The notes under the pieces were generated by a model. That model was not told the DNA's origin and did not search any database. It saw only the letters and a program-made list of their open reading frames with translations. The position numbers were made by a program, and so were the translations under genes. DNA of 38,293 nucleotides. Origin: Candidatus Sericytochromatia bacterium (lineage in GTDB: Bacteria > Cyanobacteriota > Sericytochromatia > S15B-MN24 > JAQBPE01). The stretch lies in contig JBBAPZ010000001.1 of NCBI GenBank assembly GCA_040400605.1, positions 222,544-260,836 on the forward strand. The letters run 5' to 3'. Of this stretch, positions 3,822-11,681 are shown in pieces. The stretch's first letter is position 1; every line of letters begins with the position of its first letter.

Positions 3822-4453
3822 GCGGGTGTGCGCAACACGCTTTCGCGCCAACGGTGACGTACCGCTGCTTCCAGCGAATGTGCATCGCCGGCATTGGCAA
3901 TGATATGCGTCGCCCATTCCTGTTTTTGAGCAAGTGGCATCTGTGATGCGATGCGCGCCCGTGCATCATCGGCACTCAGACCGTCACGACGTTGCATGCG
4001 TTCCACTTGCAGTGTTTCCGGTGTGTAGACCAGCCACGTCTCCGTAAAGGCGTCCTGCAAACCGTTCTCGAATAACAGTGGTATCACCATGACAACAGCG
4101 GGCGGTTTAGGCTCAGCCTGCTGAATCTGCGCCAAGGCGGCGTTCATTGTCTGACGCACCCGCGGGTGAGTATACTGGTTTAGGCGTAACCGCGCGGCCT
4201 CATCCTTGAACACGCGGACACCCAGTGCTGCGCGATCGAGTTGCCCGTCCGGCAAAACCACGCCAGGGCCAAAGTCCTTGACGATCGCCTCGTAGGCAGG
4301 TGCGCCTGGCTGTACCACTTCCCGCGCAACCACATCCGCATCGATAATGGCCGCGCCAAATGAAGCTAACAGGTTGGCAACCGTAGTTTTTCCTGACGCA
4401 ATGCCGCCAGTCAATCCGATCACGGGCAGGGCACAGTGCGCTGGAGCAATCAT
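3818..4453 (-). CDS. coaE: Dephospho-CoA kinase
   Basis: IGLTGGIASGKT P-loop, DAD, LDR, HP, IPLLFE and SQM motifs. AAAGGAGG RBS before ATG 4453. Confidence 0.95.
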   Translation of the reverse strand: MIAPAHCALPVIGLTGGIASGKTTVANLLASFGAAIIDADVVAREVVQPGAPAYEAIVKDFGPGVVLPDGQLDRAALGVRVFKDEAARLRLNQYTHPRVRQTMNAALAQIQQAEPKPPAVVMVIPLLFENGLQDAFTETWLVYTPETLQVERMQRRDGLSADDARARIASQMPLAQKQEWATHIIANAGDAHSLEAAVRHRWRESVLRTPA

Positions 4454-4469
4454 TGGCAGCCCTCCTTTC

Positions 4470-5444
4470 TCACACGACCCAATTCGCTCTAAAGACCCGT
4501 AACCAGTTCTCACCGAGGATTTTTTTTACGACAGGTTCTGAATAGCCCCTGACTATCAAAGCCTCCGTCAAACGCGGCAAAAACCCCATATGCGGCAAGC
4601 CGACCGGGGTCTGAGAGATGCCATCGAAGTCTGAACCCAAAGCGACAACATCAGGACCCGCCAACTCACAGACATGATCGATATGTCGGACGATCGCTTC
4701 AATCCCGGGTGCGCCTGGCCCAAGAAAGGCGGGGACATAGGTGATACCCAAAACCCCGTTTTGCTGGGCCAAAGCCTTGATCTGAGCATCGGTCAGGTTA
4801 CGCCTGTGGTCACAAACGGCGCGCGCATTGGCGTGGCTCACCACCACCGGTTTCGAACTTGATTCGAGCAAATCCCAAAAACCCGGTTCAGCCAAATGGG
4901 CCGCATCCACCACGATGCCAATCTCCTGCATATGCGCCACGAGTTCACGACCGGGTTGGGTCAATCCCCCGGGCTTTGCCACCCCAACGCCGTCAGCCAG
5001 CTCATTACGACCGTTCCACGTCAATCCGATCATCCGAACACCTGTCGCATACAAAGCGTCCACGTGTCGCACACTGCCCATACACGGTGCGGCATCTTCC
5101 AGACTCAATACATAACCTTCACTCAGATCACCGAGGTCGGCCAGACTGGTCACGAGGCGCAGGCCATGGGTCCTCGCTAAGTCATGAAAACAGCCGATTT
5201 TTGCCATGCAACGCGAAAAAGCGTGATGACCGATGTAGTCGGGTTCATTCCAGCAAGCCATCACTTGCAAATTGACATGACCTTGACGCAATTTCGGTCG
5301 GTCAATCTGCAAAGCGCAATCGCCCGTTGCGAATGCCAGGCCTTCATCCAGCACGCGTGACAGGGTGTCACAGTGTCCATCCACCACGAAGGCGGATGCG
5401 TGGAACGCCAAGGCCTCAGCATGGTACGATGAGTTGTGATTCAC
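4470..5444 (-). CDS. Membrane dipeptidase (peptidase M19 family)
   Basis: DGHCDT, GLTWN, SHAN, RN.TD and GSDFDG motifs. GTG start at 5444 with AAGGAG RBS. Confidence 0.9.
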   Translation of the reverse strand: MNHNSSYHAEALAFHASAFVVDGHCDTLSRVLDEGLAFATGDCALQIDRPKLRQGHVNLQVMACWNEPDYIGHHAFSRCMAKIGCFHDLARTHGLRLVTSLADLGDLSEGYVLSLEDAAPCMGSVRHVDALYATGVRMIGLTWNGRNELADGVGVAKPGGLTQPGRELVAHMQEIGIVVDAAHLAEPGFWDLLESSSKPVVVSHANARAVCDHRRNLTDAQIKALAQQNGVLGITYVPAFLGPGAPGIEAIVRHIDHVCELAGPDVVALGSDFDGISQTPVGLPHMGFLPRLTEALIVRGYSEPVVKKILGENWLRVFRANWVV

Positions 5445-5481
5445 GCGCGCGTCTCCTTTGCCCAGACCATGGAGTTGTACC

Positions 5482-7278
5482 ATGACGTGGCCTGACTTGC
5501 CGACAGCCCTACAGGGACCAATAGCGTGCTTGACCAAGTCCTGGCCCGGCACGTTGAGTCTTGCGTGCGAGCATCTGCGCACGGGCGAGCGTTGGCGCCT
5601 GAATGACGTCGTAATGCCGGCCGCCAGCTTGATAAAGGTCCCACTGGCGATCGCTGCCTACAAGGCCCACGAAACTGGCAAATTGAATTTGAACGAACGG
5701 GTGTGCGTACCACCTGTGGCCACTGATACTGAAGCGGAATTCGACAATCTGGGTCTGGCGCCGCCATTCACCACGTCTAGCTGGCGCAAGGTAGTTGATC
5801 GGATGCTGACAGAGAGCGACAACGCCGCAACCAATGCGTTGATCGAACGCCTTGGCCTTGATGCGCTGGAAGGTTTGGGTCGGTCTCTCGGTTGGACGCA
5901 GACGCGGCTCCAGCGTTTGATGTTGGATGGTGCCGCTCGCGAGGCTGGGCGAGAGAATTGGACAACAGCGATTGAAATGGCGAGCGTATTGAGCGCGCTG
6001 GCGCGTGGCCAGTTGGTGTCACCGCTGCATACCCGCGAACTGCTGGGATTGTTGGCGCAGCAGCGAAGCGATGACAAATTGGCAGCCGGCTTTGGTCCCG
6101 ATCGTCATTTTGCCCATAAAACGGGCGAATTGCCCGGCTTTCGGCACGACCTGGGCCTTGTGGACGGTTGTGATGGATGGGTGGTGTCCGCCTTGCTTGG
6201 TGGCCCCGCGACGGACTGGATGCAGGCGGATGCGCTTCTGGGGGAATTGGCGAGAATACTTGAGTCATATTGGCAAAACCAGGTGTCACGGGAGCAGGCG
6301 CTCACGCATTTCCTGCGGACACAGCAACAGGCATTGGTTCGTGATCCCCGACTGGCCCACGACCAATTGCAGCTGACGTGGCAACAGGATGCGTGGTGTG
6401 TTACCGGCGTGACAACTTTACCGGAGCGGCTTGTCATGCCCGATCGGACGGTTCGATGTGAGGCAATTCTGCTGCAGGCGGTCCGTGCCGTTGTATGCGT
6501 TCCTTTATTGCAGTTGCGCTCCGTCCCGGGTCATCACGGCGAGCTCGTCTCGCAGTTACGCCTCGGCGATACGGTTGATGTTCTGCAGTGGGATGACGAT
6601 TGGGTTTTGTTGCGCGGCCATGATGGCTACGTATCGTGGGGGAAACGGAACAATGTGACAGATGGGGTGTCGTGGTCCCCAACGCACCAGGTGGTGGTGC
6701 CGGTCATCACGGTCCGCGATCAAGGTGGCGTGGTCTGGCAGCTGGGGGCGATGAGTCGTTTGCGGCAGGTCGGTTCTGATACGTTTGCCTTACCGCGGGG
6801 GCAGATTGTTCATTTACCGGCCGATGCCGTGGCGTCGTTGGATGGTTCAGGGAGCGTATCAGGCGCACTTGCTTTTGCTGAAGCGATGCTCGGATTGCCT
6901 TATTTATGGGGTGGGGCGAGTGGGTGGGGCGTTGATTGCAGTGGTCTTGTGCAGCTCGCCTTCGCTTCACAGGGCGTATGGTTGCCACGCGATGCTGATC
7001 AGCAAGAAACGCACACCACGCCTGTGAGCGACCGGGCGGCGCTTTGCCCGGGTGACCTCCTGTATTTTCCAGGACACGTTGCCATTTACACAGACAATGG
7101 GCGTTACATCCATGCGTCAGCCAAATTCGGATGTGTCACGATCAACAGTCTGGTTTCAACGGACAACTGTTACGAGCCGAAACTGGCCGATTCGCTCCAC
7201 GCCATTGGGCGCACAACGTTGCGCCACAACGTGGAACAACCGTTCATCGGACCGTCCCAACCGACAAGCAGGCGCTGA
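5482..7278 (+). CDS. Fusion of class A beta-lactamase-like serine hydrolase, SH3-like domain and NlpC/P60 (C40) peptidase
   Basis: SxxK (SLIK), SDN and KTG motifs; SH3-like LRSVP...SQLRLGD...GYVSW; PYLWGG...DCSGLV...GHVAIY...IHAS. ATG 5482 with GGAG RBS. Confidence 0.9.
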   Translation: MTWPDLPTALQGPIACLTKSWPGTLSLACEHLRTGERWRLNDVVMPAASLIKVPLAIAAYKAHETGKLNLNERVCVPPVATDTEAEFDNLGLAPPFTTSSWRKVVDRMLTESDNAATNALIERLGLDALEGLGRSLGWTQTRLQRLMLDGAAREAGRENWTTAIEMASVLSALARGQLVSPLHTRELLGLLAQQRSDDKLAAGFGPDRHFAHKTGELPGFRHDLGLVDGCDGWVVSALLGGPATDWMQADALLGELARILESYWQNQVSREQALTHFLRTQQQALVRDPRLAHDQLQLTWQQDAWCVTGVTTLPERLVMPDRTVRCEAILLQAVRAVVCVPLLQLRSVPGHHGELVSQLRLGDTVDVLQWDDDWVLLRGHDGYVSWGKRNNVTDGVSWSPTHQVVVPVITVRDQGGVVWQLGAMSRLRQVGSDTFALPRGQIVHLPADAVASLDGSGSVSGALAFAEAMLGLPYLWGGASGWGVDCSGLVQLAFASQGVWLPRDADQQETHTTPVSDRAALCPGDLLYFPGHVAIYTDNGRYIHASAKFGCVTINSLVSTDNCYEPKLADSLHAIGRTTLRHNVEQPFIGPSQPTSRR

Positions 7279-7462
7279 AAAACGATTAATGCGTCAATTT
7301 CAAACAAGTGTGGCCAGTCATCATCACAACCGTTTCTGTTCAAAAAACAGACTTTTGGCATTGCCCGTCAACGGCATTCACGGTCGAAGCCAGGCGTTGA
7401 GGGCTACGGGCAACCGTCCGATGGTTTGCGCTCCTGAAACGCGCAAGGCGAACGCCCGGTTC

Positions 7463-7765
7463 TCAGAGGGGAAGATTGATGCGGAGGTATCCCGCGCATA
7501 AAGCACCTGCGATATCCGCACTCAAATCACCGAAGTCGAAAGTCCCGCGTCGTGAGTCAAGTAACTCCTTGGTCAGACCAATGCCAATCACACCGAAGAT
7601 CGCCCAATCCGTGGGAGCGCCGACCCGCACCAATTGGTCGGTCATGACATATGACAAGCCGAAGTGTGCGGCTTTGTCAGTGAAAGGTGTGATTTCGGCG
7701 TACGCTGGCCTCACCCACAAGCAAACAACCAACAGAACGACGCCAATCAATTCACTTTTCAACAT
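7463..7765 (-). CDS. Small membrane or secreted protein, YfiM/DUF2279-like
   Basis: Signal-like N-terminus followed by the DKAAHF...KELLD...FDFGDLSADIAG pattern. Confidence 0.65.
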   Translation of the reverse strand: MLKSELIGVVLLVVCLWVRPAYAEITPFTDKAAHFGLSYVMTDQLVRVGAPTDWAIFGVIGIGLTKELLDSRRGTFDFGDLSADIAGALCAGYLRINLPL

Positions 7766-7941
7766 CACATCCCACGCAGCGTTAAACATTGGATCGAACA
7801 AGCGTATTATACCCATCCGGCAAGGCTGGCTCGCCAGCCTCCTCGCATCGTGTTTCCGCAAAAAACCGGTGTCGCGATATCCAGGCCGATCAAATTGAAT
7901 GGTGACAATGGGCGATGATTGTGGCCCGTTTTGTTGCAACT

Positions 7942-7950
7942 TGTTACACT
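7942..7950 (+). promoter_or_regulatory. Putative extended -10 promoter for the ligase operon
   Basis: TG-T-TACACT about 85 bp upstream of the first ligase start. Confidence 0.35.
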
Positions 7951-8035: not shown

Positions 8036-9433
8036 ATGCCGGAATTGACGAAAACCACAACCAGTGAGTCGGTTGTAGCGGAGGCGATCGCACACTATGA
8101 CGACCTGCTGCGCGCCGCCAACCTCACTGACGCGGATTATGCCGAGTTTCAGGATAAGGTCGTTTCAAACCGCATCACGTTTGGTGGCCGATCATCGTGC
8201 CCCTACCTGCGGCCGCAATTTGTGAGCGCCGAGCAGTGGGAGGCCGTGAAGCAGACGTCTGTCCAGGTCAATGCCGCGATGGACAAGGTTGGTGCGATCA
8301 TTCAGGCCGACCCCTCAATTCGGGAACTCCTGTGTTTAACCGAAGGTGAGCGGACAGTGATTGCCCCGGACCCGGGTTACCCATGGTTGACGCCCACATG
8401 TCGCTATGACTCATTTTTGGGCGAACACCACTTTGCGTATGTCGAACTGAACGCTGAGTGCCCGGCTGGCCCGGCATTTACGACTGCTTTGGCGAATTTG
8501 TGGTTGGAATTGCCGATTATGAAAGCGTTCAAGGAACGCTTTGTTGTCGAGACCTTTGATGTCCGGCAGCCGTTGTTGGCGATGCTCTTGAGGGTGTATG
8601 CGACGTGGCGTGAAAACACCGCGCTTGACCGTCCGGAGCGCCCCACCATTGCAGTGGTTGACTACCTGGATGTACCCACGGTGCAGGAGTTCGAGTTGTG
8701 TCGTGAGTATTTTGAATCGTGCGGTTATCGTACTTTGGTGGCTGATCCACGGGATCTGCGCTATGAAGGCGGTCGTTTGCGTTCCAAAGATGGCGAAGCC
8801 ATTGATCTCGTCTATCGCCGTTTGCTGACGAATGAATTTCTCGACCGTTTTGACGAGTTGCAGGACTTTTGGCTCAGTTATCGCGATGGTGCCGTGTGCG
8901 TCGTGAATCCTTTTCGTTCAAAGCTGTTGCACAAAAAGATGATCTTTGGGATTTTGACCGACCAACGGGTGTTGTCAACGCTCAGCAGCGAGGAGCAGGC
9001 AGCCATCAAGCGGACGGTGCCGTGGACGCGCCTGGTGCGTGCCGGTGAAACGACAACACTGGATGGCCAGACCATTGATTTGTTGCCGTGGATACGGGCG
9101 AATCGGGAGCAACTGGTACTGAAGCCGAATGACGAGTATGGTGGCAAAGGTATATACATCGGTTGGGAATCCAGTGAGTCCCAATGGGAAGCAGGCTTGG
9201 TAGAAGCGCAACAATCGCCCTACGTGGTTCAATGGCGTGTGCACGCGCCTCAGGTGGCTTTCCCGGTGTGGGGCGAAGCAGGACTCACGTGGGAAGTGCA
9301 GACAATTGACCTTGATCCTTATATGTTTTTTGGCGAAGCGTATGGTTTTTTGACGCGTTTATCAACAACGGCGTTGTGCAACGTCACTGCTGGCGGCGGG
9401 ATTGTCCCAACTTTCGTTGTTTCAAAAAAGTGA
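8036..9433 (+). CDS. Circularly permuted ATP-grasp amidoligase (glutathionylspermidine synthase/CP_ATPgrasp-like)
   Basis: RYD...VELNAECPAG in the N-half, then LVYRR, VNP..SKLLHKK, VLKPNDEYGGKG, YVVQ and C-terminal RLS...NVTAGGG. Confidence 0.88.
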   Translation: MPELTKTTTSESVVAEAIAHYDDLLRAANLTDADYAEFQDKVVSNRITFGGRSSCPYLRPQFVSAEQWEAVKQTSVQVNAAMDKVGAIIQADPSIRELLCLTEGERTVIAPDPGYPWLTPTCRYDSFLGEHHFAYVELNAECPAGPAFTTALANLWLELPIMKAFKERFVVETFDVRQPLLAMLLRVYATWRENTALDRPERPTIAVVDYLDVPTVQEFELCREYFESCGYRTLVADPRDLRYEGGRLRSKDGEAIDLVYRRLLTNEFLDRFDELQDFWLSYRDGAVCVVNPFRSKLLHKKMIFGILTDQRVLSTLSSEEQAAIKRTVPWTRLVRAGETTTLDGQTIDLLPWIRANREQLVLKPNDEYGGKGIYIGWESSESQWEAGLVEAQQSPYVVQWRVHAPQVAFPVWGEAGLTWEVQTIDLDPYMFFGEAYGFLTRLSTTALCNVTAGGGIVPTFVVSKK

Positions 9434-9462
9434 GTTCCCTTTCAGTTTGATACGGAGGCCAC

Positions 9463-10599
9463 GTGCTCGAACAATTCACCATTGGTGTTGAAGAGGAGTA
9501 TCAGATTGTCGACCCTGTGACGCGGGAGCTTCGCAGTCATGTGTCGGCGATGTTGGAAGAAGGCGGACGCGTACTGGGTGACCAGATCAAGGCTGAGATG
9601 CATCAGTCGGTGATTGAGGTGGGAACAAACATTTGTCGAAACGTGACGGAGGCACGGGCGGATGTGACCCGGTTACGTTCGACGGTGGCTGCGCTTGCTG
9701 AACGGAGCAATCTGCGGATTGTGGCGGCGTCGACCCATCCGTTCAGTGATTGGCAGAAGCAGGATATCACTGACCGCGATCGTTACCATATGATCGTCGA
9801 GGACTTGCAGGATGTCGCGCGGGGTAACCTGGTGTTTGGCTTGCACGTGCACATTGGCATTCAGGATCGGAACCTGGCAATTGAGATCATGAATGAAGCG
9901 CGGTACTTTTTGCCGCACCTTTTGGCATTGTCAACGTCGTCGCCATTCTGGCTCGGGCGCAAGACCGGGTTGAAGTCGACCCGGTGTTCCGTGTTTAAAA
10001 TGTTTCCTCGCACTGGTGTACCGGATACGTTTTCAAGTTGGAACGACTTTGAGTCGTATGTCGATACGCTGGTCAAGACCCACTGTATTGATGATGGCAA
10101 GCGGATTTGGTGGGATTTGCGGCCACATGCCTTTTTTAACACGATTGAATTCCGGTTATGTGATTTGCCGACTGATGTCAACGACACCTTGGCGATTGTG
10201 GCCCTCATTCAGGCCATTGTTGCGAAGCTTTATGTGTTGCGAAGCAAAAACCAAGGGTTCAGGGTGTATAACCGGGCATTGATTGAAGAAAACAAGTGGC
10301 GGGCGTATCGTTATGGTCTCGACGGCAAGTTGATCGACTTCGGCAAACGTTCGGAATTGCCTGCGCGTGAGTTGATCCTTGAACTGTTAGCGTTTGTTGA
10401 CGAAGTGATTGACCCACTTGGCAGTCGTGGAGAGATCGAGCACATTCATCGCATCTTGGAGCGTGGAACGAGTGCGGATCGGCAATTGGCCGTTTACGAC
10501 GAAACCAACGACCTGCGTGCGGTGGTAGACTGGCTGATTCAGCAGACGCTCAATGGTGTACCCACCTCCGAAACGAATTCCATCTCGCCTGTCTCGTAG
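9463..10599 (+). CDS. Carboxylate-amine ligase, YbdK/GCS2 (glutamate--cysteine ligase 2) family
   Basis: TIGVEEEYQIVD, STHPF, GLHVHIG, SSPFW.G, FPRTG, WWDLRPH and TIEFRLCD motifs. GGAGG RBS. Confidence 0.93.
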   Translation: MLEQFTIGVEEEYQIVDPVTRELRSHVSAMLEEGGRVLGDQIKAEMHQSVIEVGTNICRNVTEARADVTRLRSTVAALAERSNLRIVAASTHPFSDWQKQDITDRDRYHMIVEDLQDVARGNLVFGLHVHIGIQDRNLAIEIMNEARYFLPHLLALSTSSPFWLGRKTGLKSTRCSVFKMFPRTGVPDTFSSWNDFESYVDTLVKTHCIDDGKRIWWDLRPHAFFNTIEFRLCDLPTDVNDTLAIVALIQAIVAKLYVLRSKNQGFRVYNRALIEENKWRAYRYGLDGKLIDFGKRSELPARELILELLAFVDEVIDPLGSRGEIEHIHRILERGTSADRQLAVYDETNDLRAVVDWLIQQTLNGVPTSETNSISPVS

Positions 10600-10676
10600 C
10601 AAAGACTTGGGCGATTCTTAACCACGGTTGTCGTATCAAAACTGAGCATTCGTGCTCTATGCCCGGGAGATTTAAA

Positions 10677-11639
10677 ATGGCACCCAAAAAAATTGGTATC
10701 TTGGTCGGTTTCGAGGACAGTTTTCCTCACGCGTTCATCAAACGTGTCAATGAACTGGAGGGAACAGACATCGTTGCCGAGTTTGTGCGGGTTGGTGCTC
10801 CCAGAATGGGAGAGCCTTCCGGTTATGATCTTATCGTGGATCGCATTTCTCACGAGATTATGACGTACAAACCGTTTTTGAAAAACGCTGTTTTGACGGG
10901 AACCTATGTTGTCAACGATCCGTTCTGGTGGTTGGCGGACGACAAGTTTTTTGACGGTGCGTTGGTCAGCCAACTGGGTGTTGCGCACCCCAAAACCGCA
11001 ATCATTCCGGCAAAGAAACGTTTTCCGAGAACCACCGAGATGTCGTATCGCAACCAGGCATTGGTTGATTGGAAAGAAGTGTTTGATTACATTGGCTTTC
11101 CTGCCATTCTGAAGCCTTATGATGGTGGCGGTTGGCGTAACGTGTACAAGGTCAACAACCCGCAAGAGTTCTTCAGGGCTTATGAAGAGACAGGCACCCT
11201 GGTGATGATTTTGCAGGAATGCATTGATTTCGACGATTATTTCCGGTGTCTCTCGATCGGCAAGGACAACATTTTGCCGATTCGCTATAATCCACGGGCT
11301 TACTTCCACGAGCGTTATGTGGCTGGCCCGGTCAATTATGACGATCCGTTGGTGGCGCGCGTGGTGCGTGATGCCCGAACCATCTGCCACGCGTTGGGTT
11401 ACGATATGAATTCTGTTGAGTTTGCTTGCAAAGATGGCATTCCATACGCCATTGATTTCATGAACCCGGCGCCTGATATGGATTACCATTCCATTCGCCC
11501 TGAGAACTTCGATTGGGTGGTAAATGCCATGGCGGACATGTGCATTCGCTATGTGAAAGAAGGCCGCAAAATGTCCTTGCATCACAACTGGCAAGCGATG
11601 CTGGCTAAGCAGCAACCAGCGCAGGTCGTCCTGCAATAA
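10677..11639 (+). CDS. RimK-like ATP-grasp ligase
   Basis: DRISHE, DDKFF, FPAILKPYDGGGW, LQECI, VEFA and AIDFMNPAPD motifs. GGAGA RBS before ATG 10677. Confidence 0.85.
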   Translation: MAPKKIGILVGFEDSFPHAFIKRVNELEGTDIVAEFVRVGAPRMGEPSGYDLIVDRISHEIMTYKPFLKNAVLTGTYVVNDPFWWLADDKFFDGALVSQLGVAHPKTAIIPAKKRFPRTTEMSYRNQALVDWKEVFDYIGFPAILKPYDGGGWRNVYKVNNPQEFFRAYEETGTLVMILQECIDFDDYFRCLSIGKDNILPIRYNPRAYFHERYVAGPVNYDDPLVARVVRDARTICHALGYDMNSVEFACKDGIPYAIDFMNPAPDMDYHSIRPENFDWVVNAMADMCIRYVKEGRKMSLHHNWQAMLAKQQPAQVVLQ

Positions 11640-11647
11640 TAATCGCC

Positions 11648-11681
11648 GGCCGTCGTTTCCAACGAACTGGATGCGGCGGCC
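11648..11681 (+). terminator. GC-rich stem-loop after the ligase operon (no U-tract)
   Basis: GGCCGTCGTTTCCA / TGGATGCGGCGGCC pair with G-U wobbles around a 6-nt loop. Confidence 0.4.

Follow-up and report, generated by a model that had tools for sequence, protein, structure and literature searches.

What do three ligases of different families, encoded side by side in a non-photosynthetic relative of the cyanobacteria, make together? The window—the whole stretch of DNA that was analyzed—comprises 38,293 nt of Candidatus Sericytochromatia bacterium (assembly GCA_040400605.1, contig JBBAPZ010000001.1, positions 222,544-260,836, forward strand). It contains three intact + strand open reading frames (ORFs), hereafter A, B, and C, with gaps of 29 bp between A and B and 77 bp between B and C:

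8036..9433, +, gene A: ATG..TGA, 465 aa, circularly permuted ATP-grasp ligase (predicted fold)
9463..10599, +, gene B: GTG..TAG, 378 aa, GCS2/YbdK-type carboxylate-amine ligase of the PRK13515 family
10677..11639, +, gene C: ATG..TAA, 320 aa, canonical ATP-grasp with a predicted RimK/LysX/ArgX-like fold, of an unnamed family of its own

The original prediction for this DNA was a three-amidoligase operon for a γ-glutamyl peptide pathway independent of the ribosome. Its three co-oriented genes and their spacing are confirmed by the ORF coordinates, and ORF inspection agrees that no precursor, peptidase, esterase, or amidotransferase gene lies between A, B, and C. The enzyme assignments are also supported, and γ-glutamyl synthesis without ribosomes is the likeliest reading; the trio as a self-contained minimal line is not supported, and a glutathione substitute as its product is disfavored. 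The chances are about even that A, B, and C form the ligase core of a multigene system for making and recycling a small soluble γ-glutamyl oligopeptide without ribosomes or nonribosomal peptide synthetases.

Protein A belongs to the circularly permuted ATP-grasp superfamily as judged by its predicted structure (predicted local distance difference test score, pLDDT, 95.8), in line with its earlier label. The model matches 26 permuted ATP-grasp entries over the whole chain (residues ~11-463) with VIA Z-scores of 25.2-30.9. The ranking is led by YjfC (Z 30.9, root-mean-square deviation [rmsd] 3.4, 374 aligned residues), YgiC (30.6), and GspS (29.6), followed by the eukaryotic glutathione synthetases (GSs)—human GS with Z 28.7, rmsd 3.5, and 418 aligned residues—at identities of 11-17%. 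Canonical grasps, in contrast, reach Z ≤9.8 and cover residues 200-463 only, and all nonpermuted entries stay at Z ≤12. With PF14403 (CP_ATPgrasp_2), A scores 22.8 bits, under the gathering score of 32. The model is passed by 7 of 16 chosen A homologues at 32-41 bits, which places the A family at the edge of this model. The PDB gave no match in a sequence search with A alone; a profile of A matches 3n6x (E 2e-8) and, weakly, Cp1B.

All 114 homologues share R123, D125, E137, N139, Y260, R262, K363 (the lid Lys), and R441, together with G369 and G370 of the Gly-rich loop. R123/D125/E137/N139 align with R316/D318/E330/N332 of Escherichia coli GspS, in a weak alignment (E 0.003). In Cp1B, acyl-phosphate formation needs the equivalent quartet, and mutation of the quartet impairs the enzyme (PMC12568646). 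The invariant pair Y260-x-R262 and the stretch T-R441 followed by N-V-T-x-G-x-G, a Gly-rich C-terminal loop, resemble, as a motif reading, the substrate motifs of eukaryotic GS. There, a Tyr-x-Arg pair in the S-loop binds the glutamyl carboxylate (PMC2845819), and a C-terminal Arg together with the A-loop binds the incoming amino acid (PMC2845819; bioRxiv 10.64898/2026.06.09.730884). A further S-loop Tyr at +5 stacks over the cysteinyl group in GS (PMC2845819); it is missing in A, where motif spacing places T265 at this position (T in 53% and V in 36% of the homologues). Read in this way, the motifs of A point to an acyl donor of the γ-glutamyl type in which residues other than Cys may stand second. 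E. coli GspS and YgiC/YjfC, the best structural matches, have the R/D/E/N quartet in common with A. However, they are just 11-15% identical to it, and both the substrate loop and the C-terminal motif differ: A carries Y-x-R where GspS has W-K-T, and the Gly-rich end of A is absent from the GspS C-terminus. The amidase domain of GspS is also lacking, since A aligns only with GspS residues ~180/207-618.

Protein B is a GCS2/YbdK-type ligase, as originally labeled, with family scores over cut-off: 203.5 bits with PF04107 (cut-off 21), 553 bits with NF010039/PRK13515 (cut-off 371), and 299 bits with TIGR02050 (cut-off 176), besides an E-value of 9.5e-54 with E. coli YbdK (1r8g). Invariant in 50 of 50 homologues are G8-V-E10-E-E12, H128/H130, D218/R220, and E229/R231. 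The first of these is the GhExE signature, which serves metal and ATP binding in GCS2 enzymes (PMC2588565). With the cyanobacterial GshA model TIGR02048, B scores 84 bits, under the cut-off of 249, so that by sequence it is distinct from cyanobacterial GshA. A review names PRK13515 itself as one of the GshA-like clusters (PMC3462692).

The predicted fold of protein C (pLDDT 90.2) bears out the earlier designation as a RimK-like ATP-grasp. The top nine structural matches are RimK, ArgX, and LysX entries at VIA Z 20.7-22.0 (RimK 22.0 with rmsd 3.0 and 264 aligned residues, ArgX 21.2, LysX 20.7), and Ddl follows at 19.7. By sequence scores, C is a member of no named family over cut-off: it reaches 22.5 bits with PF02655 (cut-off 23.2) and 27.7 bits with the RimK family model TIGR00768 (cut-off 143), and 5 of 86 members of its family reach PF08443 at E ≤0.001. 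Comparison with E. coli RimK by hhalign gives a probability of 87%. A PDB sequence search with C yields weak matches only, an ESM Atlas search unnamed ATP-grasp clusters only, and a search of a plasmid collection no homologue. The 86 homologues of C all share K90, K146, Q180, R190, E248, D260, and N263. Of these residues, all except Q180 align with K100, K141, R189, D248, E260, and N262 of RimK, which have roles in ATP and metal binding. Like A and B, protein C has an intact ligase fold, and the conserved ATP/Mg and acyl-phosphate residues of the three ligases are in place.

A survey of neighborhoods, proposed along with the original prediction, finds conserved co-occurrence of the three genes. 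The genome loci were the best 80 of 216 found with C as anchor, and the metagenome loci the best 80 of 597 found with A as anchor, many of them on short contigs. The 80 genome loci contain B in 52 cases, A in 36, and the full trio in 27, next to an esterase (PF00756) in 36, an S8 protease in 22, a glutamine amidotransferase (GATase)-like gene in 21, a C26 peptidase in 11, and an M29 aminopeptidase in 10. The 80 metagenome loci contain C in 58 cases, B in 50, the trio in 43, the esterase in 37, and M29 in 19. With the trio recurring at such rates in both sets, the arrangement is not due to chance. Among loci with at least 3 kb of flank on each side (49 genome and 19 metagenome loci), the trio is complete in 20 and 16, respectively. 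In most related loci, the ligases are accompanied by an esterase, an aminopeptidase, or a γ-glutamyl hydrolase; a trio devoid of any hydrolase occurs in 4 of the 20 genome and 2 of the 16 metagenome loci, and three of the four genome cases belong to the family of the window. Since hydrolase-free trios are rare and, among the genome loci, mostly confined to this family, the layout seen here is a family-specific reduction, and the idea of a minimal three-step line without hydrolases is not supported.

The order of genes differs by lineage while the trio is kept: A-B-C, A-B-M29-(esterase)-C, esterase-C-A-B, and B-C-A-M29. The peptidase varies as well, with M29 in other Sericytochromatia, M17 and S8 in myxobacteria, and C26 in Gemmatimonadota. 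In the order of the host (27 genomes, host included), A is present in 24, C in 23, the esterase in 25, and G2—an ATP-grasp_4 (PF13535) ligase—in 26. Two sister families have M29 in 16 of 18 genomes, and the window's family has it in 0 of 8. The closest relatives of the trio are Candidatus Sericytochromatia, with the best C homologues being 82-86% identical. Trees on 24 rows (a careful one for A and a quick one for B) group the window with four same-family loci under good support and leave Gemmatimonadota undivided. Both trees follow host groups, which is consistent with vertical inheritance of the A-B-C system. Same-class genomes also hold distant homologues of A and C (26-29% identity), which lack all other cluster genes within the flanks examined and were not considered further. 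Two lineages show local peculiarities: two Polyangiaceae loci (L058:6064-7839 and L078:6169-7926) carry an α-amylase with a glycogen-binding-like module directly upstream of C, and two Chloroflexota loci (L019:10516-12761 and L020:3746-5580) carry two tandem GCS2 paralogues after A.

The esterase and a fourth ATP-grasp are found elsewhere in the host genome, as is a C26 peptidase gene:

contig C2, L088:6725-9741: second conserved unit, esterase - HNH endonuclease-domain gene - ATP-grasp_4 (G2, PF13535)
contig C8, L089:5036-5863: peptidase C26 gene, directly after an apparent peptide ABC-transporter operon (ORF reading)

The layout esterase-HNH-G2 is kept in three relatives with enough flank (L093-L095), and the esterase and HNH genes are together in two more. 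The C2 esterase is nearest (44-49% identity) to the second esterase inside myxobacterial and Gemmatimonadales clusters, and the C2 copy of G2 is 42-47% identical to the G2 inside myxobacterial clusters. G2 also bears a weak likeness to the L-amino-acid ligases BacD and DdaF. The C26 protein found inside clusters is scored best by the γ-glutamyl-GABA hydrolase PuuD, with 131 bits under a cut-off of 266. Two further observations were made: the HNH gene, at 68-73% identity in five family relatives, is conserved to a degree odd for a mobile-looking gene, and a second G2-type paralogue (contig C21, L090:6255-7436) is 44% identical to the C2 copy, with relatives holding one to five such matches each.

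In the favored scheme, B would phosphorylate the γ-carboxyl of glutamate and join the glutamate to an amine or amino acid X. GCS2 enzymes activate this carboxyl (PMC2588565), so B most likely makes γ-Glu-X. Protein A would then take γ-Glu-X as acyl donor and add a C-terminal amino acid, in the manner of eukaryotic GS, and C would extend the chain once more, with glutamate as the most plausible addition. An α-dipeptide may come from the fourth ligase, G2, and the C26 or GATase-like enzyme, the M29 or M17 aminopeptidase, and the α/β-hydrolase would dismantle or trim the product. We infer the order of the steps and all substrates; X is probably not the cysteine of a glutathione-type thiol buffer. 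The varied recruitment of peptidases mirrors γ-glutamyl peptide turnover, and the repeated uptake of unrelated aminopeptidases (M29, M17) and amidohydrolases fits such a cycle.

Several points weigh against this scheme. The nearest structures of A are peptidyl-polyamine ligases (YjfC, YgiC, and GspS), slightly above eukaryotic GS, and those of C—RimK, LysX, and ArgX—act on proteins or carrier proteins. The metal site of C reads D260-x-x-N263 against E260-x-N262 in RimK and has E248 in place of RimK D248, so that the chemistry of C could differ; such an exchange of Asp and Glu at two positions of the metal site is compatible with a site that is distinct yet active. With sequence identities of only 10-20%, the solved relatives of A and C are too distant for transferring specificity. 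In addition, the C2 unit and the C8 peptidase are linked to the operon by homology to in-cluster genes of other lineages only (esterase 35-49%, G2 42-47%, C26 40%), and the C8 gene, placed after an ABC-transporter-like operon, may be unrelated to the ligase cluster.

If B and A, or a cyanobacterial-type GshA and A, replaced the canonical GshA/GshB pair, the product would be glutathione or a homoglutathione-like thiol made where gshB is lacking, and the original prediction had indeed allowed for a glutathione-like product. The cluster resembles glutathione synthesis (a GCS2-type GshA followed by GshB or a permuted GS) in having a γ-glutamyl-activating ligase beside a GS-fold ligase whose Y-x-R and C-terminal Arg motifs look GS-like as a motif reading. 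Moreover, a check of the genome for canonical genes finds a separate cyanobacterial-type gshA (contig C7, L082:1462-2604, 331 bits with TIGR02048) and no gshB (TIGR01380) over cut-off, neither in the host, which is 94.55% complete, nor in any of the 27 genomes of the order; the sole TIGR01380 match of the host (18.7 bits) is cyanophycin synthetase. Within the order, this gshA is restricted to the family of the window, where 7 of 8 genomes hold it over cut-off and hence have a source of γ-Glu-Cys without the canonical second step. The γ-Glu-Cys is possibly an end product, or a donor for A. In the 50 genomes tested out of the 80 bearing C, GshB is present in 25, A in 22, and both in only 2, as if GshB and A were mutually exclusive. 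This exclusion is an artefact, and replacement of GshB by A was rejected as its explanation. In 12 of the 80 loci, all myxobacterial (L032:10241-11428, - strand, and 11 others), a divergent 395-aa protein, A', faces B. It has no Pfam or NCBIfam match, is related to A by hhalign (probability 62%, E 7.7e-5), and appears to be a divergent permuted ATP-grasp that replaces A in myxobacterial clusters. A' occurs in 26 of the 50 genomes, and A or A' in 47 of the 50. Of the 25 genomes with GshB, 24 hold A' and one holds A. As each GshB genome tested thus carries A or A', the system coexists with canonical glutathione synthesis, as in myxobacteria. Users of glutathione are nearly absent from the lineage: GST_N (the N-terminal domain of glutathione S-transferase, GST) has no match in 25 relatives from the three cluster-bearing families and one 129-aa frame in the host, versus four to seven matches in each of three GshB-bearing same-class genomes, and none of 5 genomes has a glutathione reductase over cut-off. 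γ-Glutamyltranspeptidase is present in 4 of 5 genomes. BshC is not found in 5 of 5, and EgtB stays under cut-off in 5 of 5, so that no alternative thiol pathway was identified. With Thr or Val in place of the Cys-stacking Tyr of GS, a B that is not the cyanobacterial GshA, and the two further ATP-grasps C and G2 left unexplained, a glutathione substitute is disfavored and has a very slight chance of being correct; chemistry of some other kind is rated hardly better.

Unlike a soluble peptide, the product could be a reversible tag on proteins. B and/or C would attach glutamate or a short peptide to proteins, A would extend it, and the hydrolases or peptidases would remove the tag or degrade the tagged proteins. 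RimK, LysX, and the GCS2-derived Pup ligase modify proteins likewise, and C is structurally nearer to RimK, ArgX, and LysX (Z 20.7-22.0) than to Ddl. PafA derives from GCS2 (PMC2588565), an S8 protease adjoins the cluster in the 22 genome loci given above, and a related CP_ATPgrasp_1/Alpha-E system has been termed a peptide synthesis/modification system (PMC3597751). On the other hand, no small carrier or tag ORF recurs among the clustered neighbors, the C-termini of A, B, C, and the esterase carry no conserved acceptor tail in every third homologue inspected, B is a plain YbdK-type GCS2 enzyme, and the recurring partners are small-molecule-type hydrolases. Protein tagging is rated an unlikely explanation, though the leading rival. 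Its strong form, in which A, B, C, G2, and the hydrolases reversibly attach a defined γ-glutamyl peptide to proteins as a core function of Sericytochromatia that Chloroflexota, Gemmatimonadota, Acidobacteriota, and myxobacteria would also have, is likewise improbable; if true, this would add a widespread and so far undescribed post-translational modification of bacteria to pupylation and RimK glutamylation. Somewhat more doubtful than tagging is a role in conjugating amines, in which γ-glutamyl-amine or peptidyl-polyamine conjugates, comparable to glutathionylspermidine, the YgiC/YjfC products, and γ-glutamyl-putrescine, would be made and hydrolyzed and thereby store or buffer polyamines. YjfC, YgiC, and GspS are the top structures of A, the former two being named peptidylpolyamine synthetases (PMC12568646), and the PuuD score of the in-cluster C26 protein, although under cut-off, points the same way. 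However, human GS aligns over more of A (418 versus 374 residues) despite a Z-score lower by ~2, the Y-x-R pair and Gly-rich end of A set it apart from GspS, and no polyamine gene was recognized among the recurring neighbors, at which no family scan was aimed. The γ-glutamyl oligopeptide remains the preferred reading of the locus.

Iyer et al. in 2009 and the Pfam entry PF14403 reportedly predict a small-peptide pathway composed of a permuted grasp, a GCS2-like ligase, an α/β-hydrolase, an amidohydrolase, and a peptidase of the M20 type. As in that neighborhood, the GCS2-like ligase adjoins the permuted grasp here, and the same gene set is found across phyla in the surveyed loci. In contrast to it, A stays under the PF14403 cut-off, and the family of the window keeps only the three ligases together, having lost M29 and holding the esterase with the fourth ATP-grasp and HNH gene elsewhere. 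The α/β-hydrolase and amidohydrolase homologues, adjacent to the cluster in sister families, are located on contigs C2 and C8 here. RimK, LysX, and ArgX systems share the fold and the ATP-site residues of C but differ from it in the TIGR00768 score and the metal-site motif, and no LysW-like carrier recurs near C. The nearest published chemistry found is thioglutine (PMC13674229): in thioglutine (tgi) clusters, RimK-like or YbdK-like enzymes make small γ-Glu dipeptides, and the clusters are defined by a neighboring sulfoxide synthase (NHISS). No NHISS was recognized among the recurring neighbors here, and, as given above, EgtB is over cut-off in 0 of 5 genomes. The original prediction had called the product uncharacterized, and no orthologous cluster with an established product was found in the literature searched, whose scope excluded supplements and most subscription papers. 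The locus is a real instance of a predicted but uncharacterized ligase system.

Four points are new with this locus: the system is present almost throughout its order of non-photosynthetic cyanobacterial relatives, it is divided between two units, one family has lost M29 and acquired gshA, and glutathione replacement has been tested and argued against. Several phyla that abound in soil and freshwater also commonly carry the gene set. Once identified, the product would extend the list of widespread peptide metabolites or of protein tags, and three unassigned ligase families of possible biocatalytic use would come with it. For such work, the locus is useful in that its ligases are already apart from the hydrolases, which suits clean reconstitution, and misleading in that the fourth ligase and the esterase sit elsewhere and must be included. 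In addition, the cyanobacterial-type gshA without gshB in this family bears on the origins of thiol metabolism near the cyanobacterial root.

Upstream of A lies an element that is probably the promoter of the operon:

7922..7950, +, promoter-like element: extended -10 TG-n-TACACT (7942-7950) with a conserved TGGCC block ~17 bp upstream

In an alignment of the window with five same-family genomes, conservation upstream of A is highest at the extended -10, ~86 bp ahead of the gene, where the five relatives read TG-n-TAGAAT, TAAGAT, or TAAAAT. The element is predicted as a probable housekeeping sigma-70-type promoter. A promoter/terminator consensus scan performed at chance level (6 versus 3.3 and 5 versus 6.4 sites), and its list does not include the element at 7942-7950. 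Metatranscriptome contigs from three freshwater runs of one study, 90-99% alike to the window, cover parts of A, B, and C, and one of them spans 10336-11666, across the B-C gap. The region 4400-7939, in comparison, shows RNA depth in just 1 of 10 bins of one run. These contigs give a weak hint of cluster transcription, as they show neither strand, level, nor a single transcript. Of the coding differences tested in B and C against such close-strain contigs, 16 of 17 among the rows listed are synonymous (147 further rows were left out), and both frames are under purifying selection.

The short ORFs flanking the operon show no sign of being precursors, no small ORF recurs beside the cluster among clustered neighbors at ORF floors of 90 and 45 residues, and the upstream and downstream genes do not recur beside it beyond close kin. 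After 101 bp, C is followed by genes for a β-propeller protein, RimO, and a CDP-alcohol phosphatidyltransferase. On the other side, the operon is preceded by a small divergent gene:

7463-7750, -, 95 aa: weak match to YfiM-family lipoproteins

This YfiM-like gene has the same position in three same-family loci (L002, L004, and L008). Farther upstream, 5458-7278 (+) encodes a class A β-lactamase-like domain fused to SH3 and NlpC/P60 domains, for which all β-lactamase family scores are far under cut-off, and an M19 dipeptidase gene at 4470-5582 (-) is divergent from it. The fusion and the dipeptidase probably serve cell-wall peptide recycling. Elsewhere in the 3.7 Mb host genome, contig C11 (L083) carries cyanophycin synthetase and cyanophycinase, both over cut-off, in a non-photosynthetic lineage.

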